Below, piece by piece: positions 10,572 through 53,857 of a stretch of DNA of 64,000 bases. Source of the stretch: Candidatus Omnitrophota bacterium (GTDB lineage Bacteria > Omnitrophota > Gorgyraeia > Zapsychrales > Zapsychraceae); NCBI GenBank assembly GCA_029261065.1, contig JAJDCB010000029.1:15448-79447 (forward strand), read 5' to 3'. A program made the translations under genes and the position numbers. Each line of letters begins with the position of its first letter. Position 1 is the first letter of the stretch. The notes under the pieces are model-generated. The model worked only from the letters and a program-made list of their open reading frames with translations, was not told where the DNA came from and made no database searches.

Positions 10572-10585
10572 AAGAGGATCACACT

Positions 10586-11872: not shown

Positions 11873-11887
11873 GGTAAGAATAACCAA

Positions 11888-12083: not shown

Positions 12084-12117
12084 GTTAAACTATTAAAAGT
12101 ATAAAAAGGATTCGATT

Positions 12118-14253: not shown

Positions 14254-14332
14254 ATATTACAAAAATTTGCAAAAATGATGAATTGTATTAGAATATTGTA
14301 ATCAAAAAATTATGAATAAGGAATCTTTCTAA

Positions 14333-15967: not shown

Positions 15968-15973
15968 GTTTAT

Positions 15974-16261: not shown

Positions 16262-16394
16262 AATGTTCCTCGTCAGATTATCCTTCATTTGCCCCTTCCT
16301 AAAGTTATAAAATAATCCATTTGTTGATTCTAAAAGTATATATTCTGTAATAAAATACTATCATTATTAATATCTCTCACAAGGAGAAAGACTT

Positions 16395-23615: not shown

Positions 23616-25656
23616 ACCTCTCAAACAAATCAAGGTCGGTACCAGAGGCAGTCCGCTTGCCCTTGTGCAGATTCAAGAGATTAAAAATCTTATAGACAAT
23701 GAAGGATTTTCTCTTGATTGGCAGTCCATCACTTTTCAAACAGCAGGTGACCAAGATAAAGTAACACCCCTTGTTGATCAACTACCTGATGATTTTTTTA
23801 CCAATACCATTGATCAAGCTCTCCTCGATAAAAAAATTAATTTGGCCATCCATAGTGCCAAAGATCTAGCAGAATGCCTTACTCAGGGATTAAAGATATT
23901 TGCACTTACCGAAAGTAAAGATAATAGCGATTGTTATGTTGGGAAAACAAAAATTAAAGATTTAGCTCAAGGGGCTAAGATTGGAACAAGTAGTCATCTA
24001 AGACAAGAAGCTTTAAAAAATTTAAATCCTAGAATTGAAATTGTGAACATTCGTGGAACCATTCAAGAGCGGTTAGAGTTGCTTGAGCAGGGAGAGGTTG
24101 ATGGGATTATTGTGGCAACCATTGCTTTAAAGCGATTAGGATTAGAGGATCGTATTAGCGAAATCATGCCATGGGAGACCACAGCTCTACAAGGTCAGTT
24201 GGCTGTTGTCGGACGAGCTGACGATCTTGAATTAGAAAAAATATTTTCCACAATCGATGTTCGCGAAGATTATGGAACCGTCACCCTCCTTGGCGCAGGT
24301 CCAGGGGATCCTGAATTGATTACGGTTAAGGCTATTAAAGCATTGGGGCGTTCTGATTGTGTTTTTTATGATTATCTGATTCATCCATCTCTATTAGATT
24401 ACTGTCCGCAAGCTAATAAAACTTATGTGGGAAAAAGAAAAGGCAAGCACTCCATGCCGCAGGCTGAACTTTCACGCCTTCTAAGAGATGCCGCTTTTTT
24501 AGGAAAAAATATCGTCAGGCTTAAAGGAGGCGATCCTTTTATTTTTGGACGAGGCGCTGAGGAGTTTGACTATTTAAGATCTTATCACATTCCAATCGAG
24601 GTGATACCTGGGATTAGTTCAGCTACAGGTATTCCTGCAAGTTTAACGTTGCCTCTGACATCACGTGACGAATCGAATTCCGTGGCTTTCATTAGTGGGC
24701 ATAAAAAAGATGAAGCCCAGGATGCGAATTCTTTATTAGAGATTCCTTGTGTGGATACGATAGTCTTTTTAATGGGATTAACAAAACTAGATATCATCTT
24801 AAAATCACTTCTTAAGGCGAATTGGAAAGAGGAGACATCAATCGTTATCATTTCCAAAGGGACATGTATCGATGAAGATATTCTCATTGGAACACTAAAA
24901 GAGATTAAAAATACATTAGACTCTCATCCCGTTATGCCACCTGCTCTTATTATTGTTGGAAAAAGTGTGGGGCATTGGAAAACATATTATCAACAGAAAC
25001 AAAAAATCCTTTTTACAGGGACGAATCCAGACAAATATCGCTCAAAAGGACAAATCATTCATTGGCCTATGATTGAAATAAAAGAACATGTTTTAGATCA
25101 GAAAGAAGCAGCAAGGATCAAGAATAAAATGGATCAATATCATGTTTTAATACTGACGAGTCGATTTGCCGTTCGTTATTTTTTCAAATGGCTAAAAGAA
25201 CAGAATGTGGGGGTTGATCAGATAAAGAAAATGACGATTTGCGTTATTGGTCAAGTAACGCAGAGAAGTTTAAAAGAATTTAATCTTGATGCTGGTATTT
25301 TACCTTCTGTTGAAACAAGTGAAGGTTTATTTGAGAGCCTCGATGAGGCTATTGATCTTAAGGGAGTAGAAATTTTGTTTCCGCGTTCCTCTTTATCAAA
25401 TCCATATCTAAAAGAAAAGTTAACGAAAAGTGGTGCTTTAGTTGATGAAATGACGATATATGAAAATTTAAAGCCAGAGAAGAAAGATTTGCCTCAAATG
25501 ACGATGGATGCGATTTTTATGACTAGTCCTTCACAAGTAAAGAATTTCTTAGAAGATTATGGTACAATCCCTAAAACTTGGAAAATTTACAGCAAAGGTC
25601 CACACACAGCTAAGTCATTAAAAGAGCAGGGTTATGAAAGTGAGTTATTAAATTGA
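23608..25656 (+). CDS. tri-domain fusion: HemC-like (domains 1-2 only) / uroporphyrinogen-III C-methyltransferase (CobA) / uroporphyrinogen-III synthase (HemD)
   Basis: HemC motifs GTRGSPLALVQ and IGTSSHLRQ, ending near ...AVVGRADDLELE. Then CobA motifs LLGAGPGDPELITVKA and VVRLKGGDPFIFGRG. Then a HemD-like C-terminus (VLILTSRFAVRYF). Confidence 0.7.
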   Translation: MNKPLKQIKVGTRGSPLALVQIQEIKNLIDNEGFSLDWQSITFQTAGDQDKVTPLVDQLPDDFFTNTIDQALLDKKINLAIHSAKDLAECLTQGLKIFALTESKDNSDCYVGKTKIKDLAQGAKIGTSSHLRQEALKNLNPRIEIVNIRGTIQERLELLEQGEVDGIIVATIALKRLGLEDRISEIMPWETTALQGQLAVVGRADDLELEKIFSTIDVREDYGTVTLLGAGPGDPELITVKAIKALGRSDCVFYDYLIHPSLLDYCPQANKTYVGKRKGKHSMPQAELSRLLRDAAFLGKNIVRLKGGDPFIFGRGAEEFDYLRSYHIPIEVIPGISSATGIPASLTLPLTSRDESNSVAFISGHKKDEAQDANSLLEIPCVDTIVFLMGLTKLDIILKSLLKANWKEETSIVIISKGTCIDEDILIGTLKEIKNTLDSHPVMPPALIIVGKSVGHWKTYYQQKQKILFTGTNPDKYRSKGQIIHWPMIEIKEHVLDQKEAARIKNKMDQYHVLILTSRFAVRYFFKWLKEQNVGVDQIKKMTICVIGQVTQRSLKEFNLDAGILPSVETSEGLFESLDEAIDLKGVEILFPRSSLSNPYLKEKLTKSGALVDEMTIYENLKPEKKDLPQMTMDAIFMTSPSQVKNFLEDYGTIPKTWKIYSKGPHTAKSLKEQGYESELLN

Positions 25657-26615
25657 AGCGATTTCGCCGATTAAGACAAAGTGCAGCCATTCGTAATTTG
25701 GTGCAAGAAACGACACTTACAAAGCACGATCTCATTCAACCATTTTTTGTGATTGAAGGAAATAATAAAAGAGAAGAGATTGAATCCATGCCTGGTATAG
25801 CTCGTTATAGTGTTGATCTTCTGCTTAAAGAGGTTGAAGCCTATATAAAACAAGGTGCACAAGCGGGATTATTTTTTGGTCTTCCTAAGAAAAAAAATGA
25901 AACAGCGATGGGGAGTTATGCGAGTAATGGTATCATTCAAAAAGCGGTAAAAGCTTTAAAGAAGGAGTTTCCCGAATTCTGTGTCATTACGGATGTGTGT
26001 TTGTGCGCCTATACAAGTCATGGGCATTGTGGCATTGTGAAAAATAAAAGCGTTGATAATGATAAGACTGTTTCAATTTTAGCCAAAGCAGCTTTATCGC
26101 ATGCAACAGCAGGTGCTGATATTGTTGCTCCCTCAGATATGATGGATTTTCGTGTTAAAGCGATACGTGAGTCTCTTGATAGCAATTCTTATGAAAATGT
26201 TCCTATTATGTCATATGCCGTTAAATACAATTCTGCTTTTTATGGCCCTTTTAGAGAAGCTGCTGATTCTGCTCCTCAATTTGGTGATCGTAAAACCTAT
26301 CAAATGGATCCAGCTAATAGTGATGAAGCCCTCAGAGAAGCCAAGCAAGACCTTAAAGAGGGTGCTGATTTTATTATGGTGAAACCAGCTTTGGCTTATT
26401 TGGATATTGTTGCACGTTTAAAACAAGAATTGGCAGCACCTCTTGTGGCTTACAATGTGAGTGGGGAATATGCCATGGTTAAGGCGGCGGCAATCAAGAA
26501 ATGGGTTGATGAAGAATCTGTTGTATTAGAAAGTTTATTGGCGATGAAAAGGGCTGGGGCCAATATGATTATTTCTTATCATGCCAGTGAGGCGTTGGGG
26601 TGGCTGACCCCTTAG
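25653..26615 (+). CDS. hemB: porphobilinogen synthase (delta-aminolevulinate dehydratase)
   Basis: N-terminus RFRRLRQSAAIRNLVQETTL aligns with the HemB RPRRLR motif. Active-site region with Cys cluster CLCAYTSHGHCG. TTG start overlapping the upstream stop. Confidence 0.85.
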   Translation: MKRFRRLRQSAAIRNLVQETTLTKHDLIQPFFVIEGNNKREEIESMPGIARYSVDLLLKEVEAYIKQGAQAGLFFGLPKKKNETAMGSYASNGIIQKAVKALKKEFPEFCVITDVCLCAYTSHGHCGIVKNKSVDNDKTVSILAKAALSHATAGADIVAPSDMMDFRVKAIRESLDSNSYENVPIMSYAVKYNSAFYGPFREAADSAPQFGDRKTYQMDPANSDEALREAKQDLKEGADFIMVKPALAYLDIVARLKQELAAPLVAYNVSGEYAMVKAAAIKKWVDEESVVLESLLAMKRAGANMIISYHASEALGWLTP

Positions 26616-27928
26616 CTGTCATTCCTGGGGATGACATGATTACTTTAATGAAAACTTCCAAATCGCAAATACATTTCGATAAAGCAAAAAAAGTTCTAGT
26701 CGGCGGCGTTAACAGCCCCGTCCGCTCCTTTAACGGTGTTGGTGGTCAAGCGTTGGTCATGAAGTATGGCCAACGAGAGAAGATGTTTGATGAAGATGGT
26801 CAAGGGTATACGGATTATTGTCTTTCCTGGGGATCATTGATTCTAGGACATGCTCATCGAAATGTTGTTTTAGCTGCCAAAAAAACACTGGAGCGTGGAA
26901 TAAGTTTTGGGACAACGACGCGTGCTGAAATTGATATTGCATCTTTAATTGTAGAACGCGTGCCTTCCATCGATTTAATTCGTTTTGTCAATTCTGGAAC
27001 AGAAGCCACTATGAGTGCTATTCGTTTAGCGCGCGGCTATACACAACGTGATTGTCTAGTCAAATTTGATGGTTGTTATCACGGTCATTTTGATGATTTG
27101 TTAACGACAGCCGGTAGTGGTGTTGCTCAACTTAAGGAATCTTCTTCTGATGGCATTCCTGCCTCGCATATTGAAAATACAATAAGCCTTCCCTATAACA
27201 ATATCGAAACCTTAACGAAAACATTAACTCAACATAAGAATCGTATTGCTTGTGTCATTTTAGAACCTGTTGCGGGTAATATGGGTGTTATTCCCGCGAG
27301 CCAAGAGTTTTTACAAACGCTTCGCGATTTAACAAAGAAGTTTAATATTGTTCTTATTTTTGATGAAATCATGACGGGTTTTCGTACCGCTGTGGGTTGT
27401 GTTCAATCAGAATATAATATTATTCCTGATATGACATGTTTGGGTAAGATTATTGGGGGTGGTTTTCCCATGGGGGCGTATGGGGGACGTGAAGATATTA
27501 TGAAGTGTTTAGCGCCGCTTGGCGGGGTTTATCAGGCTGGAACGTTTTCTGGTAATCCAGCCGTGATGAGGGCTGGATATGCAACGCTTAAGCTTTTAAA
27601 TCAAGATTTTTATTGCAGTTTAAATAAAAGATGCGAAGATTTTAGTAATAAGATAAATGCCTTTTTTAACGATAAAAATTGTGGCGTGCATCTTTCGAGT
27701 TATAAATCTATGATGAGCCTTCGTTTTAGAAAGGAGCCTGTTCTTAACTATAAAGATGCAGGGCAGGCTTCAGGTGGGGAGCGCTACAGCGCGTTATTTC
27801 ATCATTTGTTAAAAGCGGGAATCTATTGGCCTCCAGCTGATCTTGAAGCTTTTTTTGTCAGCGGGGCGCATCGAGAGAAAGATTTGAAATTATTATTTGA
27901 TCAATTGCAGTTATTTTTTAATCCGTAA
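26600..27928 (+). CDS. hemL: glutamate-1-semialdehyde 2,1-aminomutase
   Basis: GGVNSPVRSF, class-III aminotransferase fold, PLP-Lys region. Overlaps hemB by 16 nt. Confidence 0.85.
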   Translation: MADPLAVIPGDDMITLMKTSKSQIHFDKAKKVLVGGVNSPVRSFNGVGGQALVMKYGQREKMFDEDGQGYTDYCLSWGSLILGHAHRNVVLAAKKTLERGISFGTTTRAEIDIASLIVERVPSIDLIRFVNSGTEATMSAIRLARGYTQRDCLVKFDGCYHGHFDDLLTTAGSGVAQLKESSSDGIPASHIENTISLPYNNIETLTKTLTQHKNRIACVILEPVAGNMGVIPASQEFLQTLRDLTKKFNIVLIFDEIMTGFRTAVGCVQSEYNIIPDMTCLGKIIGGGFPMGAYGGREDIMKCLAPLGGVYQAGTFSGNPAVMRAGYATLKLLNQDFYCSLNKRCEDFSNKINAFFNDKNCGVHLSSYKSMMSLRFRKEPVLNYKDAGQASGGERYSALFHHLLKAGIYWPPADLEAFFVSGAHREKDLKLLFDQLQLFFNP

Positions 27929-27957: not shown

Positions 27958-28353
27958 ATGATGAGGAAGTTAAAAAGTTGTTTGATGGCGTTAATATTGT
28001 CATTAGCCGTATTTACCAATTCTGGTTGTTATGCGGTTGTTCTGGGAGCCGCAGCGGGAGCTGGTAGTGTTGCTTATGTAAAGGGACGCATTGAGAAAAA
28101 TTTTGATCGACCTGTCAAAAAAGTAAACGCGGCAACCTTGTCGGCTTTAAAAGGTCTTGATATTTTTGTCATTTCAGATGAATTAACCACGCATGAATCT
28201 GAAATTAAAGGGGAATATGATGATGGAAAAGAAGTTAAAATCAAAATTATCGCCCTTACAGAAAAAAGTTCTAAAATTACTATTCGCGTGGGTGTTTTAG
28301 GGAATGAAGAAAAATCGCTTGAAGTCCTTAACGCAGTTATAAAAAAGTTATAA
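27958..28353 (+). CDS. lipoprotein (DUF3568-like)
   Basis: Signal peptide plus lipobox NSGC, 131 aa. Confidence 0.45.
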   Translation: MMRKLKSCLMALILSLAVFTNSGCYAVVLGAAAGAGSVAYVKGRIEKNFDRPVKKVNAATLSALKGLDIFVISDELTTHESEIKGEYDDGKEVKIKIIALTEKSSKITIRVGVLGNEEKSLEVLNAVIKKL

Positions 28354-28448: not shown

Positions 28449-29159
28449 ATGAATGAGCTTTCTGAAAATTCTTATATTTCAGTTATAATTCCTGCCTTCA
28501 ACGAAGAAGTCTCCTTACCCAAAGTCATCAATGACATTCCCAAAAATATTGTTAAAGATATTATTGTCGTTAACAATGCCAGTACAGATAATACTCCTGA
28601 AGTGGCTCGTAACATGGGATGTATTGTCGTTGAGGAGCTTAAAAAGGGTTATGGACAAGCGTGTCTTGCTGGAATTGCTGCCTTAAACCCTAAAACAGAC
28701 ATTGTTGTTTTTTTAGATGGTGATCATAGTGATCATCCTGAGCAAATGCAAAAACTCATTGATCCTATGGGTCGAGACGGTATTGATTTTGTTATTGGAT
28801 CACGTGCTTTAGGAGAAAGAGAGCGGGGAGCAATGGCTCCTCAGGCTTTTTATGGCAATAAGCTTGCGTGTTTCTTAATGAAATTGTTTTGGGGCTACAC
28901 GTACACAGATCTCGGACCATTTAGAGCCATTAATTATCAAGCCCTTAAGCGTTTAAATATGATCGATCAGGATTTTGGCTGGACAATCGAAATGCAGATT
29001 AAAGCGATTGAATGTGGTTTAAAAATTAAAGAAGTCCCTGTCGATTATCGTAGACGTATAGGTAAATCTAAGATTTCAGGTACATTTAAAGGAACGCTTT
29101 TAGCAGGTGAGAAGATATTGCGTACTATTTTTAAGTATAAATTTTTCGTAAAAAAGTAA
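28449..29159 (+). CDS. GT2 polyprenyl-phosphate sugar synthase (Dpm1/Ppm1-like)
   Basis: SVIIPAFNEE, DGDHSD (DXD), 236 aa. Soluble GT-A. Confidence 0.65.
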   Translation: MNELSENSYISVIIPAFNEEVSLPKVINDIPKNIVKDIIVVNNASTDNTPEVARNMGCIVVEELKKGYGQACLAGIAALNPKTDIVVFLDGDHSDHPEQMQKLIDPMGRDGIDFVIGSRALGERERGAMAPQAFYGNKLACFLMKLFWGYTYTDLGPFRAINYQALKRLNMIDQDFGWTIEMQIKAIECGLKIKEVPVDYRRRIGKSKISGTFKGTLLAGEKILRTIFKYKFFVKK

Positions 29160-29165: not shown

Positions 29166-30725
29166 ATGACAGACCACTTGAATAAAAAGATTGTCTTACT
29201 GGGAACCCTCTCAACCCTAATTTGGGTTTTTGTGATGATGATGTCTAAGGGATTGCCTGTGTTTTTTTGTCAGTGGTTAGATGCTATTTCCTTTCAGATG
29301 TTGACCAAAGAAATTATGCAAATGACTCATGGTTTTTATTATCAGGTCAACAACAATGATATGCCTACCGTTATTTATATCGGTTTTTTTATGATATGCT
29401 TTTTAATTATGCTTTATTTAGTGCGACGTCTTGAGAAGAATAAAAGACAAGATTTTGTTTTGGGTTGGATTGTATTGTTTTCCATACTCTTTCGCTGTGT
29501 CTTACTTCCTGCAGAACCTATCCATGAAAATGATTTTTACCGGTATCTGTGGGATGGAAAATCAGCCAATCACGGTATAAACCCTTTTAAATATGCTCCG
29601 GCTGATTTATCAATCTATGAAGCTCAGCTTAATGAAGATTTCTTAGATTTTGACAGCGAGGAGGTTCAAGAAATAAAAGAATTTAGAGAAGATGATTTTA
29701 AAAAACTGGATCATCTTATTGAATTACGCGATCAGAATTACCTTTTTTATGAGCGTATCGGGCATCAAGAAGTACCAACCATTTATCCACCTGTAGCCCA
29801 AGGAATCTTTGCAGGCATCACATTCTTATGGGAAGATCACTTTGTTTTTATGAAGATAATTTTTATGCTTTTTGATATAGGTGTGATATTTCTTATCATC
29901 GCTTTATTGTCGCATCTTAAATTAAATCCCTGCATGGTTATTATTTATGGTTGGTCGCCATTAGTTTTAAAGGAATTTGCTATCTCCGGACATTATGATT
30001 CTATCCCGATATTTTTTACCACTTTAAGTTTGTTTTTATTAGTAAAAGGCAAACAGTTAGGAGGCTCTGTGTTTTTGGCCATGGCTGCGTTATCAAAGTT
30101 TTTCTCAGGGTTATTGTTGCCCTTGTACTTTCGAAAAATGAAGTTTATTTATCTTTTTTGTTTTGCTCTTATTTGTGTGGTGTTTTATGTGCCCTATGTG
30201 CTTTGGAATGATACAGGTCTTCATGGCGTTTTTAAAGGGTTACATGTTTATAATCAAGAATGGAATTATAACTCTAGTGTTTTCGCGGGCGTTTATCTAT
30301 TGTTAGATAAGTTCATGCCGCAACTAACAAATGAGCTATTAAACGTTAAATTAATTGTAGCGGGGATATATGGCTTGATTGTCTTAACAATGGCTGCTAT
30401 CGCGCATCGAAACGATTTAGACTTTTTACATAAGTGCTTCCTTGCTATAGCTTTACTGTTTATTTTTAACCCAGTAGGAGATCCATGGTATTTTTGCTGG
30501 GCGATTCCATTGTTGTGCCTTTTTCCTTATAGATCTTGGATTTGGTTGTCTGGTTTATTAATTTTGAGTTATTTGAATTTTCATAGTGATTTGGGTGTTA
30601 TTAATGATAGATGGTTAGATATTCCAATAATCAGTTGGGTCATATACATACCTTTTTTCTTATATGTATTATTTGAGTTAGTGACAAAAAAATGTAAGGT
30701 TAATGATATTTTGACGACTAAATGA
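29166..30725 (+). CDS. GT-C-type integral membrane glycosyltransferase (DUF2029/PimE-like)
   Basis: 519 aa, more than 10 TM segments. Immediately downstream (7-nt gap) of the Dpm1-like GT2. Confidence 0.4.
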   Translation: MTDHLNKKIVLLGTLSTLIWVFVMMMSKGLPVFFCQWLDAISFQMLTKEIMQMTHGFYYQVNNNDMPTVIYIGFFMICFLIMLYLVRRLEKNKRQDFVLGWIVLFSILFRCVLLPAEPIHENDFYRYLWDGKSANHGINPFKYAPADLSIYEAQLNEDFLDFDSEEVQEIKEFREDDFKKLDHLIELRDQNYLFYERIGHQEVPTIYPPVAQGIFAGITFLWEDHFVFMKIIFMLFDIGVIFLIIALLSHLKLNPCMVIIYGWSPLVLKEFAISGHYDSIPIFFTTLSLFLLVKGKQLGGSVFLAMAALSKFFSGLLLPLYFRKMKFIYLFCFALICVVFYVPYVLWNDTGLHGVFKGLHVYNQEWNYNSSVFAGVYLLLDKFMPQLTNELLNVKLIVAGIYGLIVLTMAAIAHRNDLDFLHKCFLAIALLFIFNPVGDPWYFCWAIPLLCLFPYRSWIWLSGLLILSYLNFHSDLGVINDRWLDIPIISWVIYIPFFLYVLFELVTKKCKVNDILTTK

Positions 30726-30778: not shown

Positions 30779-31570
30779 ATGAAAAATTGGCATGTCGTTG
30801 TTATTTGTTCATTGGGTCTTTTTTTGATATCTTGTAATCAGCCGACTAAAGTGTCTTCTCAGGAAAAGGTTGTTAGCTCATCAAAAATACTCGTTGACTA
30901 TAATATTTGGAATAATGTCTTAAGGACATACGTTAATGATGAAGGGCTGGTGAATTATGATGGTCTTAAGGCGAATCGTGGGAAGCTCGATCAATTCGTT
31001 GCTCAAGTGAAAACGGCAAATATAGACTCATTAAGCTCAAATGAAAAAAAGACGTTTTGGATTAACGCCTATAATGCTTTAACCTTAAATCTTATTGTTG
31101 ATAATTATCCTCTAAAATTTGGTGGGATTCGAACGATTAATTGGGGTAGGCCATGGAGTATTAAGATGAAGGTGGCTAACCAAGATTTGACATTAGGCGA
31201 GATTGAGCATGAGATTTTAAGAAAATGGGATCCCATTGATCCTCGTATTCATTTTGCCATCAATTGCGCCTCTATTGGATGTCCTAAATTACCCAATAAA
31301 CCCTTCTACCCTGAAACCTTGGATGAACAGTTAGAGTTTGAAGCCAAACGTTTTATCAATGATAAAGAAAAAATTCGGTTAGATAAAACTACAAATATCC
31401 TTCATTTCTCGGCTATTCTCGATTGGTTTAAGGATGATTTCTTGGTTGTGGAAGAGGACATCTTAAGTTATATTAAGAGATATCTTAACGAGGAAGATGT
31501 GAACTATTTAGAGAGCCATGAGGTAACATTAAAGGCGTCAAAGTATGATTGGGGTTTAAATAAAAAATAG
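30779..31570 (+). CDS. DUF547 domain lipoprotein
   Basis: Lipobox LISCNQ. YNALTLNLIVDNYPL and IHFAINCASIGCP match DUF547. Confidence 0.5.
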   Translation: MKNWHVVVICSLGLFLISCNQPTKVSSQEKVVSSSKILVDYNIWNNVLRTYVNDEGLVNYDGLKANRGKLDQFVAQVKTANIDSLSSNEKKTFWINAYNALTLNLIVDNYPLKFGGIRTINWGRPWSIKMKVANQDLTLGEIEHEILRKWDPIDPRIHFAINCASIGCPKLPNKPFYPETLDEQLEFEAKRFINDKEKIRLDKTTNILHFSAILDWFKDDFLVVEEDILSYIKRYLNEEDVNYLESHEVTLKASKYDWGLNKK

Positions 31571-31595
31571 TACGGATAAGATGAAGGAGAGGGAT

Positions 31596-32648
31596 ATGGA
31601 AACGTTTACACATCAAAAAGTATCAGAATATTACGGGAAGGTATTAAAGACAAAAAATGATTTAAAAACAAGTGCGTGTTGCACGTTAGATAAATTGCCG
31701 GTATATGTCAGAGAGCCTTTAAAGCTTATAGAAGATGAAATTCAAACAAAATTTTATGGGTGTGGATCGCCTTTTCCATTAGTGCTGGATGGTATGAAAG
31801 TTCTTGATTTAGGTTGTGGGACGGGGCGTGATTGTTTTGTCCTAAGTTATTTTGTAGGTGAAAAAGGTGAGGTTGTTGGGGTTGATATGACAAAGGAGCA
31901 GCTTGAGGTTGCCCATCGATATACGTCCATTCAGATGGAGAAGTTTGGATATAAGAAACCGAATGTTAAATTTTTTCATGGGTATATTGAAAATCTTCAA
32001 GAAATTGAGCTGCCAGATAATTATTTTGATATTGTTATTTCTAATTGTGTTGTGAACTTATCACCGGATAAACCTTCTGTTTTAAAAGAAGTTTTTCGTG
32101 TTTTAAAAGAGGGGGGCGAGTTCTTTTTTTCTGATGTCTATGCCGATCGTCGTTTGCCTCAGTGGGCGCGTGAAGATCAAGTTCTTTTGGGAGAGTGTTT
32201 GGGAGGGGCTTTGTATTGGAAAGATTTTGAACGGTTGGCTAAGAATACAGGCTTTAATGATCCGCGCGTCTTTGCCTGCTCTAAAATTGATTTACATGAT
32301 CAAGAAACTATTGATAAAATTGGATTTGCACATTTTAATTCTATTACATATCGCCTTTTTAAATTAAAAAATCTTGAAGATGCCTGTGAAGATTTTGGTC
32401 AGGTCGCAACATACAAGGGAACAATTAAAGAAAGCAAGCATCAGTTTATGTTAGATAATCATCACCTCTTTGAAGAGGGAAAGCCGATGCTTGTCTGTTC
32501 GAACACAGCCAGTATGCTAGAAGATACGCGTCTTAATAAACATTTTGATATTGAAGGAGATCTTTCTACACATTACGGGTTATTTGAAGGGTGTGGTGAA
32601 TCTCCTATTGAAAGTGATTCTGATAAACCAGCTGGAGGGTGTTGTTAG
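31596..32648 (+). CDS. arsM: arsenite S-adenosylmethionine methyltransferase (ArsM/AS3MT family)
   Basis: SAM motif I VLDLGCGTGRDCF. ArsM-conserved Cys contexts TSACCTLD (N-terminal Cys pair), ISNCVVNLSPDK and LLGECLGGALYW. ATG 31596 preceded by AAGGAGAG; the ORF opens at 31581. Confidence 0.65.
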   Translation: METFTHQKVSEYYGKVLKTKNDLKTSACCTLDKLPVYVREPLKLIEDEIQTKFYGCGSPFPLVLDGMKVLDLGCGTGRDCFVLSYFVGEKGEVVGVDMTKEQLEVAHRYTSIQMEKFGYKKPNVKFFHGYIENLQEIELPDNYFDIVISNCVVNLSPDKPSVLKEVFRVLKEGGEFFFSDVYADRRLPQWAREDQVLLGECLGGALYWKDFERLAKNTGFNDPRVFACSKIDLHDQETIDKIGFAHFNSITYRLFKLKNLEDACEDFGQVATYKGTIKESKHQFMLDNHHLFEEGKPMLVCSNTASMLEDTRLNKHFDIEGDLSTHYGLFEGCGESPIESDSDKPAGGCC

Positions 32649-32666
32649 CTTTAGATCATATATCAC

Positions 32667-33317
32667 ATGCCCATTGATATCATCATCCCCATTCTCAACG
32701 AAGAAAAAATTCTTACCGAAAAAAAAGACTACTATTCCAAACTACAGAAATTTTCCAATGTTGTCTTTGTTGATGGCGGTAGTTCTGATCGTTCTATAGC
32801 AGTGGCAGCCCAGTATGGAGAGGTTATTGAATCAAAGAAGGGACGAGCCTTTCAGAAAAACTTTGGTGCCAAACATACCCAATCCGAATTCCTCCTATTT
32901 TTACATGTTGATTCTTTTATAAATACAAAAAGTCTTAAAAAAATTGTTTCTCTATTAGAAAAGAAGAGTGTGGCTGGATGTTTTCAAATGAAAATTTTAG
33001 ATACGAGATTGATTTTTCGGTTATATGAATGGGCAGTCAATACAAGAGCGAAAACTTTAAAAGTCCTTGATGGCGATTTAGGCTTGTTTATCAGGCGTGA
33101 CGTTTTTGAAGGTTTAAATGGCTATGATCAATTGCCAGTGATGGATGACATTGTCTTTTCTAAACGTTTGCGAGATAAAGGAGAAGTTGCCATATTAGAT
33201 GACGCGATTTATGTCTCTAGCCGTAAATGGCATGAAAGTGGTTTTTATATCACGTTATTTCAATATTCTTGGGCGTATTTGAAACTGTGGTTTGGCATTC
33301 TAAGGCCTTCAAAATAA
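32667..33317 (+). CDS. glycosyltransferase, TIGR04283-like (rSAM/selenodomain-associated transferase 2 type)
   Basis: IIIPILNEE...FVDGGSSD GT-A signature. 216 aa. 19 nt downstream of arsM. Confidence 0.5.
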   Translation: MPIDIIIPILNEEKILTEKKDYYSKLQKFSNVVFVDGGSSDRSIAVAAQYGEVIESKKGRAFQKNFGAKHTQSEFLLFLHVDSFINTKSLKKIVSLLEKKSVAGCFQMKILDTRLIFRLYEWAVNTRAKTLKVLDGDLGLFIRRDVFEGLNGYDQLPVMDDIVFSKRLRDKGEVAILDDAIYVSSRKWHESGFYITLFQYSWAYLKLWFGILRPSK

Positions 33318-33423
33318 AGAGTAAAGCACAAAAAATTGATTATTTCTTGCCTTTTGCTGATATCATTTTATATTATTAATAAGAGATAAATCTTAGATTA
33401 ATCTATCATGATTGGATAAAACA

Positions 33424-34077
33424 ATGAAACTAGAAGACGTAACACAAATTTTATCATTAGCATTTACGAATGCTATACTAGAAATTTTTCAAACAACGGT
33501 TCAAATACCAGTGAAAGAAACGGAAGATGATTGCCTTCCATCTGGAGATATGTCTCTGGTTAGTTCTATTGGGATAACAGGAGGCATTTCTGGGAATGTG
33601 AGTGTCTGTTGTTCAAAAGAGTCAGTAGCTAAGGTTATTTCTAAAATGCTTGGTACGGAGGTTACGGCGGATTCTGAAGATTTGAAAGATGGGCTTGCAG
33701 AGATTGTCAATATGGTTGCAGGCTCAACAAAGAATAAATTGGAAGTCACACGTTTTCTTATAAATTTAAGTATTCCAACAACCTTGATGGGGAATCAAAT
33801 TTGTATAGAAAAGTCTAAGAATACAGAGCTTATTGAGAAAGATTTTGTTAATGATTTAGAAGGTGTTGCAATAAAAACATATTTTGCTTTTAAAATAGTT
33901 CCTGATGAAGAAGCTAAAAAAGCACAAGAGGCTATAGCTAATGCGGGGAATGCTGAGCTTAATGAGATGGAAAGTTTAATGAAATTATCGGAAGGAGCGG
34001 CTTTAGCAGAACTGGCTGAAGAGACTCCGAAAGACGATACACCGCCACCACCAACACAACCACCTCCTGCGAGTTAA
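33424..34077 (+). CDS. CheX/CheC-family protein with Pro/Ala/Glu-rich C-terminal extension
   Basis: CheX-like core (LSLAFTNAILEIFQTTVQIPV...GISGNVSVCCSKE...EIVNMVAGSTKNKL). Tail ...DDTPPPPTQPPPAS. The ORF opens at TTG 33412. Confidence 0.5.
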   Translation: MKLEDVTQILSLAFTNAILEIFQTTVQIPVKETEDDCLPSGDMSLVSSIGITGGISGNVSVCCSKESVAKVISKMLGTEVTADSEDLKDGLAEIVNMVAGSTKNKLEVTRFLINLSIPTTLMGNQICIEKSKNTELIEKDFVNDLEGVAIKTYFAFKIVPDEEAKKAQEAIANAGNAELNEMESLMKLSEGAALAELAEETPKDDTPPPPTQPPPAS

Positions 34078-34119
34078 ATATTATATCACCTTTAGATATG
34101 TTCCATTTTTTCTTTGATT

Positions 34120-34527
34120 ATGTCTGCTGAGAGCGAGAATAAAATAAATTCTGTGCGAGTTGACAAATGGTTGTGGTCTGTGCGCATTTGTAAGACGCGT
34201 AGAATTGCTTTGGATTTGTGCAAGAAGGGAAAAGTGTTTATCAATGATCAGCCAGTTAAGCCATCGCGAGATGTTAGAGTAGGAGATATTCTGTCAGTGA
34301 GACGCGACGGGATTTTATTTACTTTTGAGGTCTTAAAATGCATTGATAAGAGGGTTGGCGCACCGATTGCTGAAACTTGCAGAAAAGATAAGACTACTAA
34401 AGAAGAACTCGAAAAAATTGTCATGATTAAAAAGGGGTGGGTTCCGCGTAGAGAAAAAGGTGCTGGTCGCCCTACTAAGAAAGATCGAAGAGATATGGAA
34501 GCTTTTTTGGATCCAGATCGAGAGTAG
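34120..34527 (+). CDS. S4 RNA-binding domain protein (Hsp15/HslR-like)
   Basis: VRVDKWLWSVRICKTRRIA...GKVFINDQPVKPSRDVRVGDIL S4 motif. Basic C-terminal tail. The ORF opens at TTG 34114. Confidence 0.55.
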   Translation: MSAESENKINSVRVDKWLWSVRICKTRRIALDLCKKGKVFINDQPVKPSRDVRVGDILSVRRDGILFTFEVLKCIDKRVGAPIAETCRKDKTTKEELEKIVMIKKGWVPRREKGAGRPTKKDRRDMEAFLDPDRE

Positions 34528-34535
34528 AATAAATT

Positions 34536-35378
34536 ATGAATAGAACATCAGAACCGGTTAGAGCCCATGATACCCCTTGGCGGGCGAGTCTTTACAAAGT
34601 CATATTTGAAGCTGAAACACCAGCAGGAAAAAATTTTGATGTCGTTTTGTTGTGGGCGATTTTGATAAGTGTGATAGCTGTACTTTTAGAAAGCGTGCAG
34701 TCTATTGGCGCCCAGTATGGGGCTACTTTACGTGCCATAGAATGGATATTAACCATTCTGTTTTCAATTGAGTATTTGGTGCGATGTCTATGTGTTAAAA
34801 AGCCATTTCAATACATGAAGAGTTTTTTAGGCGTCATCGATTTTTTCGCCATTATCCCAACATTTCTCAGTTTAATTATGATAGGAGCGCAATCACTATT
34901 GGTGATTCGAGCGCTTCGTTTGTTGCGTGTTTTTCGTGTGCTTAAATTGGGGCGTTATTTAAAAGAATTTAATATCTTAATCAAAGCCCTAAAGAGTAGT
35001 TACGACAAGATTATGGTTTTTTTGTTTTCAATCCTTACCTTAACTCTCATTGCCGGAACCGTGATGTATCTCGTTGAAGGTGAGTCTAGTGGTTTTACGA
35101 GTATTCCTCGTAGCATTTATTGGGCGATTGTAACGATGACCACGGTCGGTTATGGTGATATTGCCCCAAAAACGGTTCTTGGTCAATGTATAGCCTCGAT
35201 AATTATGATTTTGGGTTATGCTATTATCGTTGTTCCCACCGGTATCTTCTCTGTTGCTCTTACGCGTGCGACATTAGAGGAGGGTTCCAAAAAATATTGC
35301 CCTCATTGTAAGATTTCCGCTTATGGTCACGACGCATATTATTGTCGCATTTGCGGGACAGCCCTGGATCTTGGTTAA
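34536..35378 (+). CDS. voltage-gated K+ channel (6TM, Kv-like) with C-terminal zinc-ribbon
   Basis: S4 voltage sensor RALRLLRVFRVLKLGRYLK. Selectivity filter TTVGYGD. C-terminus CPHCK...CRICG (CXXC...CXXC). Confidence 0.75.
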   Translation: MNRTSEPVRAHDTPWRASLYKVIFEAETPAGKNFDVVLLWAILISVIAVLLESVQSIGAQYGATLRAIEWILTILFSIEYLVRCLCVKKPFQYMKSFLGVIDFFAIIPTFLSLIMIGAQSLLVIRALRLLRVFRVLKLGRYLKEFNILIKALKSSYDKIMVFLFSILTLTLIAGTVMYLVEGESSGFTSIPRSIYWAIVTMTTVGYGDIAPKTVLGQCIASIIMILGYAIIVVPTGIFSVALTRATLEEGSKKYCPHCKISAYGHDAYYCRICGTALDLG

Positions 35379-35433
35379 CTCATTTTCCACATCCTAAGTA
35401 GAATCGATTTATTATTGTGCTATAATATGCGCT

Positions 35434-37842
35434 ATGCATAAACGGATACCTAAGTTTCTTTTTGTTTTTTTCTTTCTATCTGGGGCTAGTGCGTTGATGT
35501 TTGAGATCGTCTGGCAACGCTTAATGGTTCTTATATTTGGGTCGAGTGCTCCGGCAACTACGGCTATTCTGACGGCTATTTTCTGTGGTTTTGCCTTAGG
35601 CAGTTGGGTGGGAGGAAAACTTTTACGGAAGATTAAACGTGTTTATCTTTTTTACGCGGCCATTGAGATTTGGATTTGCCTTTGGGGTATTTCGGTTCCG
35701 CATCTTCTTAAAGGGGCTGATGCCCTACAATTGATTATGTTTAAAAGTGCTTCGATGGGGAGTTTGTCATTCTTTTTTGGTCGTTTTGCGTTGGCAATTT
35801 TGGCTGTTCTTCCCGCGACATTTGGGATGGGGGCTACCATCCCAGTCATGAACAAAATTTTAACACAATTTCGATCCATTGGACCTGGAATTGCTTTGGC
35901 TTATGGAGTCAATACGATTGGCTCAGTGGGGGGCTGCCTCTTAACAGGGATCGTATTGATACCAACGTTGGGCATCAACCATTCTTTGATGGTCGCTGGA
36001 AGCATGAACTTAATTGTTGGATTTGGGTTATGGATTTATTCCGTGGCAGGCCAAGAACGCGTTCTGGCTATTGCTAGCGAGGATAAGATTTCTGAGCAGA
36101 AAACACAGCCTAAGCTTAAATCTTCTCTTACATCGCAGTTAATGTTTTTTTATTTTATTTCTGGCTTTTTAGCCCTTGGTTACGAAATTGTTTGGTTTCG
36201 TTTGATGGGGATGTTGACCACAAACTCTATGATCACCTTTACCGTAGGTCTCGCGGTTTACCTTTTGGGTTTTTCTTCCGGAAGCCTTCTTCTTTATCCA
36301 GCGCTTTCAAAACGTTTATCAGCAGGGTGGATTTTTTTCTATTCCAATGTTGGTGCTGGTCTGATGACGTTATGTTTGATTCCTCTCTATTATTATTTTT
36401 CTGATATTAACCATTTACGCTTTTTAGATCAATGGTTTGATGCGTGGCAGTTAACACCTTATTTACGTATAGTCCTAGAGGAAGGTTTTTTTGCCTTCAT
36501 CATTATGTTGATTCCACCTGTTTTTATGGGGCTCGCCTATCCATCCATTTGTGCCTTAACGATTTCTGATGTAAGTCAAACACCCAATCGAAGTGGTTGG
36601 ATTTATTCTCTTGGCACCTTTGGCGCGGCTTGCGGTGCGATTTTGGTGGGGTTAGGTATTGTGCCGATTTTTGACATTATGATGAGTTTAGCTCTTTTGT
36701 GTTTAATGAGTTTTATATTATCTTTTGCCACAATGATGAGTATTGATTCTGATTTTCGAAAAGTAAAAGGGTCTTTATCAACAGTTCTGATTTTTTTGAT
36801 CATCATCGCATTAAGTTACGGTTTTTTAGCTCATCCCATTATTAGGGGAGGAGGTCGTTTGACTAAGAGCGGGGATCACTGGTTATTTAAAGATCCTCAT
36901 CCGGAATTCCCTAACGCTAAACGAAGTTTGCATCGCTATAAATCGGGTGGTGTTGGAAATGTTAGTGTGGATCAATTTGAAACGAGAAAAGAAACATTTC
37001 GACGGTTGTTAATAGACGGACAGAGAGTTGCTTCAACAAGGTTTGGGCCAAAGGTCGATGCCAAGATGCTCGCGCATGTTCCGTTAGCCATTCATCCCCA
37101 ACCAGAACGTGCTTTAAGTGTGGGTTTTGGTAGTGGAGGTACATCTTGGTCGATGACACGTTACGGCATTGAAGTGGATTGTGCAGAGATCGAACCAGAG
37201 GTTGTCCGTTCCGCTCATCTATTTTCTGATCAAAATTATAATATTTTAGAGGAGCCTAACTACCGTGTTATCATGAATGATGTTCGTAATTATCTTCATT
37301 TAACGGAGCAACGTTATGATGTCGTTTCAACGGATGTCACAAATTTGCAGTATAAACAAAATGGGAGTTTATATACTAGAGAATACTTTCAATTAATAAA
37401 AGATCATTTGACTAGTGATGGTGTGGCTGCCGTATGGATGCCGATGCTTTGGAGTAATGTTTATGATTTTCAAATATTACTTAAGACCTTTCAAACAGTC
37501 TTTCCACATAGTTCTGTTTGGTATTTTGACAGTTATTATGTGATCCTCATTGGCACCCCTGAGCCATTAGAAGTTGATGAAAAACGTTTAGCCTCTCTTT
37601 TCCGTGATCCTAAAATTGCTGCTGATCTAAAGGAAATCAATGTTACAACTCCTGAGCAATTTCTTGAATTTTTGATTATGGATGAAGAGGGGGTGAGTAA
37701 AATTTCAGAAGGGATGCCGATACATACCGATGATTATCCCATTTTAGAATTTAGAAATATTCCTCATCTCTATTATGGACAAATGGTGACACTTAAGGAT
37801 ATTGCCCCTTTTCTCATCGATTCTACATCAATTGCGGAATAA
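35434..37842 (+). CDS. fused polytopic membrane domain / spermidine-synthase-like aminopropyltransferase
   Basis: About 14 N-terminal TM helices. C-terminal SpeE-like fold (ALSVGFGSGGTSWSM, VIMNDVRNYL, YDVVSTDV). Confidence 0.55.
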   Translation: MHKRIPKFLFVFFFLSGASALMFEIVWQRLMVLIFGSSAPATTAILTAIFCGFALGSWVGGKLLRKIKRVYLFYAAIEIWICLWGISVPHLLKGADALQLIMFKSASMGSLSFFFGRFALAILAVLPATFGMGATIPVMNKILTQFRSIGPGIALAYGVNTIGSVGGCLLTGIVLIPTLGINHSLMVAGSMNLIVGFGLWIYSVAGQERVLAIASEDKISEQKTQPKLKSSLTSQLMFFYFISGFLALGYEIVWFRLMGMLTTNSMITFTVGLAVYLLGFSSGSLLLYPALSKRLSAGWIFFYSNVGAGLMTLCLIPLYYYFSDINHLRFLDQWFDAWQLTPYLRIVLEEGFFAFIIMLIPPVFMGLAYPSICALTISDVSQTPNRSGWIYSLGTFGAACGAILVGLGIVPIFDIMMSLALLCLMSFILSFATMMSIDSDFRKVKGSLSTVLIFLIIIALSYGFLAHPIIRGGGRLTKSGDHWLFKDPHPEFPNAKRSLHRYKSGGVGNVSVDQFETRKETFRRLLIDGQRVASTRFGPKVDAKMLAHVPLAIHPQPERALSVGFGSGGTSWSMTRYGIEVDCAEIEPEVVRSAHLFSDQNYNILEEPNYRVIMNDVRNYLHLTEQRYDVVSTDVTNLQYKQNGSLYTREYFQLIKDHLTSDGVAAVWMPMLWSNVYDFQILLKTFQTVFPHSSVWYFDSYYVILIGTPEPLEVDEKRLASLFRDPKIAADLKEINVTTPEQFLEFLIMDEEGVSKISEGMPIHTDDYPILEFRNIPHLYYGQMVTLKDIAPFLIDSTSIAE

Positions 37843-37902
37843 TTCGTTTAAGCTTAGGAAGAGAAAATGCATGAGTTTGGCATGGCGTCTAAGAGTCTCA
37901 AA

Positions 37903-37911
37903 TGTTATAAT
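37903..37911 (+). promoter_or_regulatory. extended -10 promoter element (TGtTATAAT) upstream of the GGDEF gene
   Basis: tgttataat at 37903-37911, 42 nt upstream of ATG 37953. Confidence 0.3.
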
Positions 37912-37952
37912 CCTTCCAGAAAACCGACCAATCTTTTTCAAATTTTGATCCT

Positions 37953-39401
37953 ATGGGTAGTTTTAATAAAAAGAAAAAATTTTCAGAAGTTTTAGCAAAA
38001 GAATCAACGGGTAAATATGTACGGCCTGAAGATTCTAAAATGTATAAACGTTTGATGGATCGCGCGCATAGCGGGGTTTATATTGCTGATGAGCGTGGTT
38101 TAATATTTTATGTCAATGATGCCTTGGTCCGTATGTTGGGCTATAGTTCGCAAAAGGAAATATTGGAACGAAGTCTGATCGAAGTCTTATATGGTAGTCC
38201 TGAGGCTGGTTTTGAATTTTATGATGCCATGGAGGAGCTGGGATTTATTAATGATTATGAAATAGCTAACAAAAAGGCTGATGGTTATGAAATTGTGTTG
38301 TCTGTCACTAGTCATTTTATTCGAGAGGGTGCTGGAAAGGTTAAAGGGGTTGAGGGGATCGTGTATGACAGGACAGAGACAAAGAAGATAGAGAAATCTT
38401 TAACAAAAGAAAAACAAAAATTAGAGGAAATATTAAACCTTGGTGATAAGGTTACAACAATAAGAGAGTTTCAGGAGTTGATTGATTTTGTTGTAGATCG
38501 TATAGCCGTTATTTTAGAGGCGAGGGTTTGTTCGATCCTATTGGTTGATGAGAACAGCGGAACCCTTAAGATTGCAGGGGCATTTGGTCTTGATAAGGAA
38601 ATTATTGAGAAAACAGAAATTAGTGTGGGCGATCCGATAGCCGGTGTTGTCGCTAAAGATTTAATTCCTATCTTAGTTAAAAATATTGAATACGACGAAC
38701 GTTTTAAACGCGCCAATCGTGAAGGTTACACCAATCAATCTTTTATGATTGTCCCCATTTTAGTAGGTGATGAGTTATTAGGGGTGATTGATGTAGCTGA
38801 TAAGATTTCGGATGTCTCGATCGGTGCATCATTTGATGAGATCGATCTCAAAATTCTTGCCTCTTTAGCCCGCGAAACAGCTGTTGCCATTGATAATTTA
38901 AAGGTCATCACAGATCTAAATTTACAAACGGTAACAGATCCTTTAACGCGAATATACAATTACAGAAAGTTTTCTGATAGTTTGGAACATGAAATTAAGC
39001 GTCTAGGACGGACCAAGGGCAATTTGTGTGTGATGATGCTCGATCTTGATAATTTTAAATCTTATAACGATAGTTTTGGTCATTTAGAAGGCGATACTCT
39101 TCTAAGAGGTATTGGCGAAATCTTAAGAAAAAATTTACGTGACACAGATATTGTATGTCGTTATGCTGGTGATGAGTTTGTCATAGTCTTACCTGATACT
39201 AACATCGAAGGTCTAAAAGAATCTGCCACTAAAGTTATTCGTGAAGTTTCGGCTCACCCTTTTAAACGTCAGGTTACTGTAAGTTTAGGAGCTGCTCGTT
39301 ATCAAGAGGGAATGACGTCCAATGAGTTGATGCTTAAAGCGGATAAATCACTTTATGAGGCAAAGGAAAAAGGTAAGAATCAGTTTTATATATTAGAGTA
39401 A
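37953..39401 (+). CDS. PAS-GAF-GGDEF signalling protein (diguanylate cyclase, AGDEF variant)
   Basis: PAS region (SGVYIADERGLIFYVNDAL). GAF region. GGDEF domain with RYAGDEF active-site variant and LDLDNFKSYND. Confidence 0.65.
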   Translation: MGSFNKKKKFSEVLAKESTGKYVRPEDSKMYKRLMDRAHSGVYIADERGLIFYVNDALVRMLGYSSQKEILERSLIEVLYGSPEAGFEFYDAMEELGFINDYEIANKKADGYEIVLSVTSHFIREGAGKVKGVEGIVYDRTETKKIEKSLTKEKQKLEEILNLGDKVTTIREFQELIDFVVDRIAVILEARVCSILLVDENSGTLKIAGAFGLDKEIIEKTEISVGDPIAGVVAKDLIPILVKNIEYDERFKRANREGYTNQSFMIVPILVGDELLGVIDVADKISDVSIGASFDEIDLKILASLARETAVAIDNLKVITDLNLQTVTDPLTRIYNYRKFSDSLEHEIKRLGRTKGNLCVMMLDLDNFKSYNDSFGHLEGDTLLRGIGEILRKNLRDTDIVCRYAGDEFVIVLPDTNIEGLKESATKVIREVSAHPFKRQVTVSLGAARYQEGMTSNELMLKADKSLYEAKEKGKNQFYILE

Positions 39402-39493
39402 TGCTACGAGTTAAATGAAACACCACTTTTAATTATCAAATACCCCACCCTTGTAAAATGTCTGAGATCTCCAATAAAGCGAATAAGAATAAT

Positions 39494-40951: not shown

Positions 40952-40957
40952 GGACTG

Positions 40958-41683
40958 TTAAATGTTTTTCTTCATGTTGCGTTTTATTGAAATAATTTCT
41001 CGAAGAACGCCAAGGGCATTGTGATGCGGTAAAACGCGACTGTCAGGATCGCTTTTCCAAGTGACAGGAAACTCTAAAACGCGATATCCATGTTTAAAGG
41101 CTAAAAGTAAGATTTCAATATCAAACATAAATTCATGACTTTGACAGAGAGAAAATAATTGATGAGCCGTTTTTTTCGTATAGATTTTAAATCCACATTG
41201 AGTGTCTGTAAAAGATTGCGGTAGGCCGATGTAAAGATTAATAAAGGTTCGAAAGGCTTTTGAAAGGAATTGTCTAGACGGAGATTGTTGGTGTTTGATA
41301 ACACTATTTTTGTGTCGGCGGGTTCCTATGGCAATATCACATTCCTTATTATTAATGAGACTTAATCCTTTAAGCGCATAATCGTAGGGAATACACAGAC
41401 CACTATCAGCAAACATAATGATATTACCTACAGCTGCTAGCATGCCTGTTTTCACAGCAAAACCTTTGCCTTTATTGTTTTCGTAGCGAATGACTTGAAT
41501 TTTGACTTGGTTTGAGGTTTCAACTTCGCGAGCCTTTTTCGCAGTATCATCCTGACTGCCATCATCAACAACGATGATTTCACCTTTTAGCCCCTGTTTG
41601 GTGAGAAAATGGTTGGCTGCATTTACATCATCTTTTATTTTGTGAGCTTCATTATAAGCTGGAATAACAATTGAAAAATCCAT
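40958..41683 (-). CDS. GT2 polyprenyl-phosphate sugar synthase (ArnC/Dpm1-like)
   Basis: FSIVIPAYNE, VVDDGSQD. 241 aa. 6 nt upstream of the ArnT-like gene on the same strand. Confidence 0.65.
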   Translation of the reverse strand: MDFSIVIPAYNEAHKIKDDVNAANHFLTKQGLKGEIIVVDDGSQDDTAKKAREVETSNQVKIQVIRYENNKGKGFAVKTGMLAAVGNIIMFADSGLCIPYDYALKGLSLINNKECDIAIGTRRHKNSVIKHQQSPSRQFLSKAFRTFINLYIGLPQSFTDTQCGFKIYTKKTAHQLFSLCQSHEFMFDIEILLLAFKHGYRVLEFPVTWKSDPDSRVLPHHNALGVLREIISIKRNMKKNI

Positions 41684-52487: not shown

Positions 52488-52534
52488 TGGTCGTGTTTTT
52501 GAAGTTTAAATATTATTTTTAGAAAGGAAAGATT

Positions 52535-53818: not shown

Positions 53819-53857
53819 AAGATTAAGTCGTTATTATTATCAGGAACAGGTGATTAT

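Follow-up and report, generated by a model that had tools for sequence, protein, structure and literature searches.

A 64,000-nt stretch of DNA from a Candidatus Omnitrophota bacterium (contig JAJDCB010000029.1, positions 15,448 to 79,447, referred to here as the window) probably encodes a variant arsenosugar-type organoarsenical pathway, judging from the families to which its genes belong. [quoted passage not shown] The combination of a long ArsM with an unnamed sister clade of ArsS in Omnitrophota is new here, as is the extended list of partners for the later steps. The comparisons below establish family identities; each chemical step and the product in this organism, a putative arsenosugar or arsenolipid, are predicted from them. 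An earlier note on this DNA had interpreted the genes as an arsenic-sugar toolkit, and this interpretation was supported overall, with corrections to its account of the radical-SAM genes, the layout and the neighbours.

The ArsM methyltransferase and its transferase partners

The open reading frame (ORF) 31596–32648 on the forward strand encodes an ArsM/AS3MT-type As(III) S-adenosylmethionine methyltransferase of the long form, 350 amino acids (aa) in length and with a C-terminal GGCC. The frame is open from 31581 to 32648 and the ATG at 31596 was taken as the right start, because an AAGGAG Shine-Dalgarno sequence lies 8 nt upstream and the proteins of relatives are also 350 aa long. In a search of solved structures, the protein aligned with the ArsM structure 5evj over residues 8–342, that is over its full length with the C-terminal domain included (E = 7.5e-112), with CmArsM (4fr0) over residues 8–332 at 48% identity (E = 2.2e-88) and with 8xt7 (E = 1e-76). 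Generic methyltransferases ranked far lower, starting at E = 1e-10, and the Methyltransf_31 domain scored 126.6 bits. In the HMMER alignment four cysteines of the query, C28, C56, C151 and C201, matched C44, C72, C174 and C224 of CmArsM exactly. By these alignments the protein is a bona fide ArsM with a complete set of As(III)-binding and catalytic cysteines, for which methylation activity is predicted. The ArsM identity and the cysteine contexts quoted in the earlier note were both recovered, and the protein did not turn out to be a generic methyltransferase lacking the tetrad. The closest structure is that of a eukaryotic algal ArsM (5evj, Chlamydomonas), and a Plasmodiophora brassicae protein (P0053) is present at 631 bits in the homolog list.

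The score of this ArsM lies beneath every NCBIfam ArsM cutoff. Its best match was the arsenite methyltransferase model PRK11873 with 176.3 bits, under the cutoff of 263; this model has 272 positions and spans only residues 6–250 of the protein. The AsSugarArsM model (NF038099) gave 106.7 bits against a cutoff of 400 (564.6 for the Flavobacterium control) and the AST ArsM model 137 bits against 500. Such low scores are expected, since these models were made for ArsM types that are short or specialised and the protein is of the long AS3MT-like form. We read them as a limit of model scope and not as evidence against membership.

With the detoxifying ArsM/AS3MT enzymes (CmArsM, Chlamydomonas ArsM and human AS3MT) the protein shares its three-domain length, the four cysteines and the SAM-binding fold, but its gene is located among biosynthetic transferases rather than in an ars resistance operon. 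Among the ORFs scanned at 5.8–8.7 kb and 20.5–63 kb, no match to the arsR, arsB, acr3 or arsC families was found, in agreement with the earlier note, which saw no resistance operon around arsM. Within the second interval, the ORFs 23563–25656, 25653–26615, 26600–27928 and 27958–28353 were assigned to HemCD, HemB, HemL and DUF3568 by synteny only, as was the remainder of the window.

Downstream of arsM on the same strand, ORF 32667–33317 encodes a GT-A (GT2) transferase of the TIGR04283 family. It scored 192.6 bits against the equivalog cutoff of 182, with residues 4–211 aligned to positions 2–212 of the 221 in the model, and it has all 29 columns that are invariant in a 16-sequence alignment of the family in which it is itself included. 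The TIGR04283-type identity claimed for this glycosyltransferase was thereby borne out by the NCBI cutoff; the distance to arsM is 18 nt (32649–32666) and not 19 nt as had been noted. In a scan of 26–45.5 kb, promoter-like sites numbered 80 where 60 were expected and terminator-like sites 22 where 14 were expected, numbers which do not bear on co-transcription, and no convincing terminator was seen in it after the transferase gene. Rfam and tRNA scans revealed no riboswitch near the cluster.

The second transferase, encoded at 43056–43727 on the forward strand, is a TIGR04282/DUF2064 protein with a CofC/MobA-like nucleotidyl-transferase fold. Its TIGR04282 score was 191.7 bits (cutoff 134), DUF2064 (PF09837) was found at 106.7 bits and structure 3cgx in the PDB at E = 3.8e-24.

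The nearest database proteins to the genes of the window came from metagenome-assembled genomes (MAGs) of Candidatus Omnitrophota. Relatives with an ArsM 77–83% identical to that of the window have the gene order hemCD-hemL-DUF3568-GT2-GT-C-(DUF547)-ArsM-TIGR04283-TIGR04282-(GT4), and in a more distant one, with an ArsM identity of 70%, the order is VTT-ArsM-unknown-TIGR04283-DegT-TIGR04282-cupin. The TIGR04283 gene was located downstream of ArsM in all Omnitrophota relatives examined, and TIGR04282 followed it directly in relatives L001–L005, L007 and L011. Over the whole range of 70–83% ArsM identity, relatives keep a core arranged as ArsM-TIGR04283-(0 or 1 gene)-TIGR04282, with different inserted genes. 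ArsM is much better conserved among relatives (83%) than the neighbouring glycosyltransferase (57%).

In the window the two transferase genes are 9.7 kb apart. They are parted by a lineage-specific block (33412–41683) with CheX, S4, K+ channel, MFS-spermidine-synthase fusion and PAS-GAF-GGDEF genes and, on the reverse strand, ArnT-like GT-C and GT2 genes, and by a second radical-SAM gene (41830–43059). No gene of this 33.4–43.05 kb block was found in the neighbourhoods of the related Omnitrophota clusters. Since relatives have the transferases adjacent and lack the block genes, the arrangement described earlier as a dispersed toolkit is a contiguous cluster that was broken up in this lineage: the genes are indeed scattered in the window, but mostly through a local insertion of 9.7 kb, and the cluster is contiguous or nearly so in relatives. 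The core of ArsM, TIGR04283 and TIGR04282 is ancestral in this Omnitrophota lineage.

The association extends to other phyla. An alignment scan of GTDB genomes with TIGR04283 gave 62 good loci, in which partner families were counted within 10 kb. TIGR04282 was present in 43 of the 62, canonical ArsS in 26, DUF547 in 19 (usually directly upstream), purine-nucleoside-phosphorylase-type PNP in 18, AsSugarArsM in 14, a Dpm1-like GT2 (at least 200 bits to the window protein 28449–29159) in 12, an OlsE-like hydroxylase in 12, GT-C in seven and a long ArsM in two; an ArsM of any type was found in 16. Because TIGR04282, ArsS and ArsM recur across these loci, the link of TIGR04283 to arsenic exceeds mere adjacency. 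The recurrence of the OlsE-like hydroxylase hints at a lipid-linked product.

One example is a Flavobacterium cluster, which according to NCBIfam reads ArsS (455 bits)-TIGR04282-PNP (347 bits)-MIP-AsSugarArsM (565 bits)-channel-hydroxylase-DUF547-TIGR04283. In its additional members an aquaporin (MIP), an outer-membrane channel like that of the MetA pathway and a fatty-acid hydroxylase resembling OlsE are encoded (L027:5921–6577, 7602–8426 and 8430–9302). This Flavobacteriaceae type resembles the window in TIGR04282, TIGR04283, ArsM, a Dpm1-like GT2 (55% identity), a GT-C and a DUF547 gene, which there lies directly upstream of TIGR04283. It differs in having a short AsSugarArsM and ArsS, whereas the window has a long AS3MT-type ArsM and the alternative radical-SAM clade, and in having PNP, MIP and the hydroxylase, none of which is seen in the window, where the cluster is moreover split by the insertion. 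The MetA-like channel was likewise searched for in the window with no match. The Flavobacteriaceae-type cluster is named by NCBIfam, and no experimental test of it was found in the literature.

A radical-SAM clade related to ArsS

The ArsS-related gene is located at 6949–7887 on the forward strand, with a probable start at ATG 6961 and a database copy of 308 aa. The protein has a CX3CX2C core with invariant C46, C50 and C53 and matched PF04055 with 59.6 bits. It is collinear with ArsS and a C-terminal cysteine pattern is common to both. When the profile of its clade was aligned with that of ArsS by hhalign, a probability of 98.7% was obtained over 268 columns, which cover almost the whole length and include the C-terminal cysteine motifs. 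The protein itself scored 208 bits on the hidden Markov model of the clade against 48 bits on that of ArsS. By these profile comparisons it is a full-length ArsS homolog from a separate, unnamed clade. The ArsS-like enzyme of the earlier note (6961–7887) is therefore an ArsS-related sister-clade member and not a canonical ArsS, as it fails the TIGR04167 model and has no detectable DUF3641. Its best named match was the 'Rv1681 family', an assignment that was rejected since the score of 103 bits falls short of the cutoff of 380. No useful match to this protein came from the PDB, and ArsS is without a solved relative.

An alphaproteobacterial relative (34% identity, E = 3e-47) has a long ArsM two genes away and a TIGR04283-TIGR04282 pair at a distance of 5 kb. 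A metagenome scan seeded with this protein gave 80 loci, 55 of them with usable flanks, and TIGR04283 or TIGR04282 was found within 5 kb of the clade gene in 14 of the 55, often overlapping it. An all-against-all clustering of the neighbours was contaminated by antisense ORFs on high-GC contigs and was used for picking candidates only. The neighbours in those loci were identified by NCBIfam as bona fide TIGR04283 (214–267 bits) and TIGR04282 (145–175 bits), together with the phosphorylase MTAP (425–519 bits) and a long ArsM. No canonical ArsS was seen nearby in the loci with the clade gene beside TIGR04283 and TIGR04282. The clade has few members: when 1.84 billion representatives were searched exhaustively, 71 of them, at 50% clustering, matched at E<=1e-30.

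Closer to the window protein, an ortholog 62% identical to it overlaps by 4 nt with a long ArsM (53% identical to that of the window), which is followed by MTAP (277 bits, over the cutoff); this operon arrangement was found in two MAGs. The two activities are also joined in single proteins. P0362 is an ArsM followed by the radical-SAM enzyme, 48% and 53% identical to the respective window proteins, and P0363 has the reverse order with 48% identity for the radical-SAM part and 51% for ArsM. P0381 is another ArsM+radical-SAM fusion, and P0498 joins the radical-SAM enzyme to an ArsM-like domain. Other fusions are with DUF2064 (P0419, DUF2064 first), with a preceding metallophosphoesterase (P0411 and P0425) and with a following HD 5'-deoxynucleotidase-like domain (P0440). 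These eight proteins carry no functional name in the sources examined, and a literature search for ArsM-radical-SAM fusions returned no relevant paper. The fusions with ArsM in both orders and the nucleoside-processing partners argue that the clade acts on the product of ArsM, which would yield an adenosyl-type arsenical. The connection of the window gene to the toolkit, as drawn in the earlier note, accordingly runs via the neighbourhoods and fusions of its clade with ArsM, TIGR04282 and TIGR04283, and not via local adjacency.

Two known systems offer a comparison. ArsS adenosylates DMAs(III) to 5'-deoxy-5'-dimethylarsinoyl-adenosine (DDMAA) (PMC13598754), biochemistry that is credited to Cheng et al. 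2021 in passages of PMC12159101 and PMC13598754. In Synechocystis, according to a passage of a preprint (bioRxiv 10.1101/2022.09.23.509062) citing Xue et al. 2019, arsS is co-transcribed with arsM and uses methylarsenite made by ArsM. The ArsM-ArsS pair of Synechocystis sp. PCC 6803, the ArsS of which was taken as the TIGR04167 type on NCBI naming, is similar to the window in its pairing of a methyltransferase with a full-length homologous radical-SAM enzyme, and the same logic of 5'-deoxyadenosyl addition to DMAs(III) would be expected. It differs in that the window enzyme fails TIGR04167 and is not encoded adjacent to arsM. In arsinothricin synthesis a C-As bond is likewise made by a radical-SAM enzyme, ArsL, which has an ArsM-type methyltransferase as its partner. 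ArsL is, however, noncanonical and transfers a 3-amino-3-carboxypropyl group, whereas the partners of the window clade, MTAP and an HD-nucleotidase, point to an adenosyl product.

Our proposal, tentative and a little short of probable, is that the clade is a second C-As bond-forming adenosyltransferase, which acts alongside ArsM of the long AS3MT type in lineages such as Omnitrophota and Alphaproteobacteria and which may form a fuller arsenosugar or arsenolipid pathway with MTAP, TIGR04282, TIGR04283 and DUF547.

The second radical-SAM gene, 41830–43059 on the forward strand, is an orphan. Its product has a TCNLSCPSC motif (CX3CX2C) and an N-terminal twitch/SPASM-like segment, for which N_Twi_rSAM gave 72 bits (cutoff 170) and Radical_SAM 19 bits, also below its cutoff. 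No homolog was found among about 170 compared loci nor in the PDB, and as true partner it was set aside for want of a homolog in any compared locus. The pair at 41830–43727, listed earlier as part of the kit, holds up for TIGR04282, which passes its cutoff, but not for this enzyme, which is not among the families that usually accompany it.

Flanking genes and the remainder of the window

Immediately 5' of arsM, the forward-strand gene 30779–31570 encodes a DUF547 lipoprotein (PF04784, 87.5 bits) with an invariant CxxxxC (C163 and C168). Both cysteines and the lipobox LISC are invariant in 30 out of 30 cluster-linked DUF547 homologs. The DUF547 proteins of TIGR04283 clusters are secreted or lipoproteins and the CxxxxC (NCAS.GCP) is present in all 30; L027:9306–10001 and L049:9118–9918 are further examples. 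A periplasmic protein with vicinal thiols near arsenic enzymes could bind trivalent arsenicals.

Further upstream on the same strand are a GT2 of the Dpm1/AglJ-like polyprenyl-phosphate sugar synthase type (28449–29159) and a membrane glycosyltransferase of the GT-C type, MptA/B- or GT87-like (29166–30725). The former scored 82 bits on GT2 and, below the cutoff, 128 bits on its best NCBIfam match AglJ; it is 55% identical to a GT2 located 5–9 kb from TIGR04283 in Flavobacteriaceae. The latter matched MptB weakly, its orthologs in relatives carry PF26314/PF09594, and in the Flavobacteriaceae loci the gene after the GT2 encodes a GT-C with weak similarity to it. The lipid- and periplasmic-glycosylation surroundings described in the earlier note are thus present, but they are not merely background, as they recur near TIGR04283 in Flavobacteriaceae. 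The DUF547, GT2 and GT-C genes may belong to the system; they were rated as possible accessories only, because all three are missing in relative L172. On the other side, 3' of TIGR04282, a GT4 glycosyltransferase is encoded at 43796–44794 on the forward strand (Glycos_transf_1, 96 bits), and the position after DUF2064 is likewise filled in relatives L001–L005.

The G+C content of the window is uniform at 33–41%, the GC skew is positive throughout and almost all genes are on the forward strand. Between the ArsS-related gene and the heme genes, synteny with L171 indicates a beta-oxidation set at 9102–18236 (acyl-CoA ligase, thiolase, enoyl-CoA hydratase/3-hydroxyacyl-CoA dehydrogenase and acyl-CoA dehydrogenase). 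Inside the lineage-specific block, an 802-aa fusion (35434–37842) combines a multi-pass, MFS-like membrane part with a spermidine-synthase domain (NF037959, 90 bits). A second local block occupies 45.4–49.4 kb, between a cupin gene and a sigma-54 gene. Polysaccharide export and synthesis functions were found at 51669–63109, with Wza/Wzz-like proteins, ATPases, an epimerase, a deacetylase, a 773-aa ATP-grasp/GNAT fusion and a Wzm/Wzt ABC transporter; within this region, 54726–55133 is a gene of the 23S rRNA intervening-sequence protein family. The sole RNA gene detected in the window is a tRNA-Lys(CTT) at 3702–3776 on the reverse strand.

Short Logan contigs of the same organism reach past both ends of the window (the contig itself is 92 kb) and contain neither MTAP nor ArsS. 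Just upstream are napD, napA and napB of the periplasmic nitrate-reductase type (L178), and downstream, after the polysaccharide region, six more glycosyltransferases (L177).

Proposed pathway and competing explanations

In the proposed pathway, ArsM would methylate As(III) to dimethylarsenite, and the ArsS-related enzyme would then place the 5'-deoxyadenosyl group of SAM on the arsenic, as canonical ArsS does, giving DDMAA. A phosphorylase of the MTAP/PNP type, the gene of which is clustered with the system elsewhere but does not occur in the window, would remove adenine to leave arseno-ribose-1-phosphate. The CofC-like TIGR04282 protein could activate this arseno-sugar phosphate with a nucleotide, and the GT-A enzyme TIGR04283 could move the arseno-ribosyl unit to an acceptor. 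As a last and speculative step, the DUF547 lipoprotein, the Dpm1-like GT2, the GT-C and the GT4 may hand the product to a lipid or glycan of the envelope.

Several points weigh against this reading and against the part given in it to the enzyme encoded at 6949–7887. On TIGR04167 the enzyme scored 55.7 bits against a cutoff of 300, with 410 and 455 bits for two ArsS controls, and DUF3641 (PF12345) was not detected in it at E<=10, the control ArsS scoring 165.5 bits. Its identity to those clade members that are found beside TIGR04283 and TIGR04282 is only about 33%. In its own lineage the gene is always beside transaldolase, 19–24 kb from arsM (24 kb in the window), and it is tied to arsM here by family association and not by local adjacency. 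No MTAP or PNP gene was found in the window or in the 8–10 kb recovered beyond its ends, and the rest of the genome beyond the visible 64 kb might hold a canonical ArsS. The 'arsenosugar biosynthesis' names of TIGR04282 and TIGR04283 are annotation by association; the literature search returned no paper testing such a role for either family, and none on them or on DUF547 in an arsenosugar context. Co-transcription of arsM with the TIGR04283 gene is read from the 18-nt gap, its sole basis.

The alternative that survives best, although unlikely, is that ArsM serves detoxification or volatilisation only, that its neighbours reflect inherited gene order and that the 6949–7887 enzyme has an unrelated job. 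ArsM alone gives methylation-based tolerance in characterised systems, and a 60%-identical ArsM in Pseudobdellovibrionaceae adjoins an MIP aquaglyceroporin with no TIGR04283, a detoxification-like setting. A region of about 50 kb, from tkt-tal-radical-SAM through hemCD-hemL to arsM, is moreover syntenic among relatives as a whole, so that local order carries little functional weight, and the radical-SAM gene lies between pentose-phosphate genes. Yet the trio ArsM-TIGR04283-TIGR04282 is kept where intervening and surrounding genes differ, its families are also clustered in phyla that are not related, and inherited synteny cannot explain the fusions of the clade with ArsM and DUF2064.

Quite improbable is a real pathway in which a canonical ArsS from another part of the genome, or else the orphan enzyme 41830–43059, carries out the C-As step, with the 6949–7887 protein as a paralog of different chemistry on a related substrate. 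Such an arrangement would be in line with another Omnitrophota MAG, where TIGR04283, TIGR04282 and ArsS (410 bits) are contiguous, with the 4-nt overlap (GTGA) between the stop of the orphan gene and the start of TIGR04282, by which the two are translationally coupled, and with a view of the genome limited to 64 kb. The absence of the orphan from every compared cluster speaks against it, as do the operon and fusion links of the 6949–7887 clade to ArsM, seen at 48–62% identity to the window protein, and the lack of a nearby canonical ArsS where the clade adjoins both transferases. Another substrate (Sb, Se, Te or a non-metalloid thiol-bound molecule), which would make the arsenosugar labels misleading, is highly improbable: the labels do derive from co-occurrence and the ArsM does score below its models, but those models cover other ArsM types, and all four As(III)-processing cysteines of CmArsM are kept in a full-length alignment at 48% identity.

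To our knowledge, ArsM and ArsS are the only experimentally demonstrated enzymes of arsenosugar synthesis, and the steps past the adenosyl-arsenical are undescribed. For the organoarsenical pathway proposed here, the locus and its relatives provide a testable list of enzymes, namely ArsM, the ArsS-like radical-SAM enzyme, MTAP/PNP, the CofC-like nucleotidyltransferase and the GT-A transferase. They also indicate a second radical-SAM clade, labelled just 'radical SAM protein' in current annotation, and the natural fusions of ArsM with this enzyme are ready-made constructs for biochemistry. If the proposal is true, such a fusion would pass toxic dimethylarsenite straight between active sites. 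The clade with MTAP, TIGR04282, TIGR04283 and the secreted CxxxxC DUF547 protein would then constitute a fuller pathway than is now described, one that might supply the cell envelope with arsenic-containing sugars. Organoarsenical biosynthesis would extend to Omnitrophota, an uncultured phylum, and surveys of arsM and canonical arsS alone would undercount the capacity for complex organoarsenic compounds.

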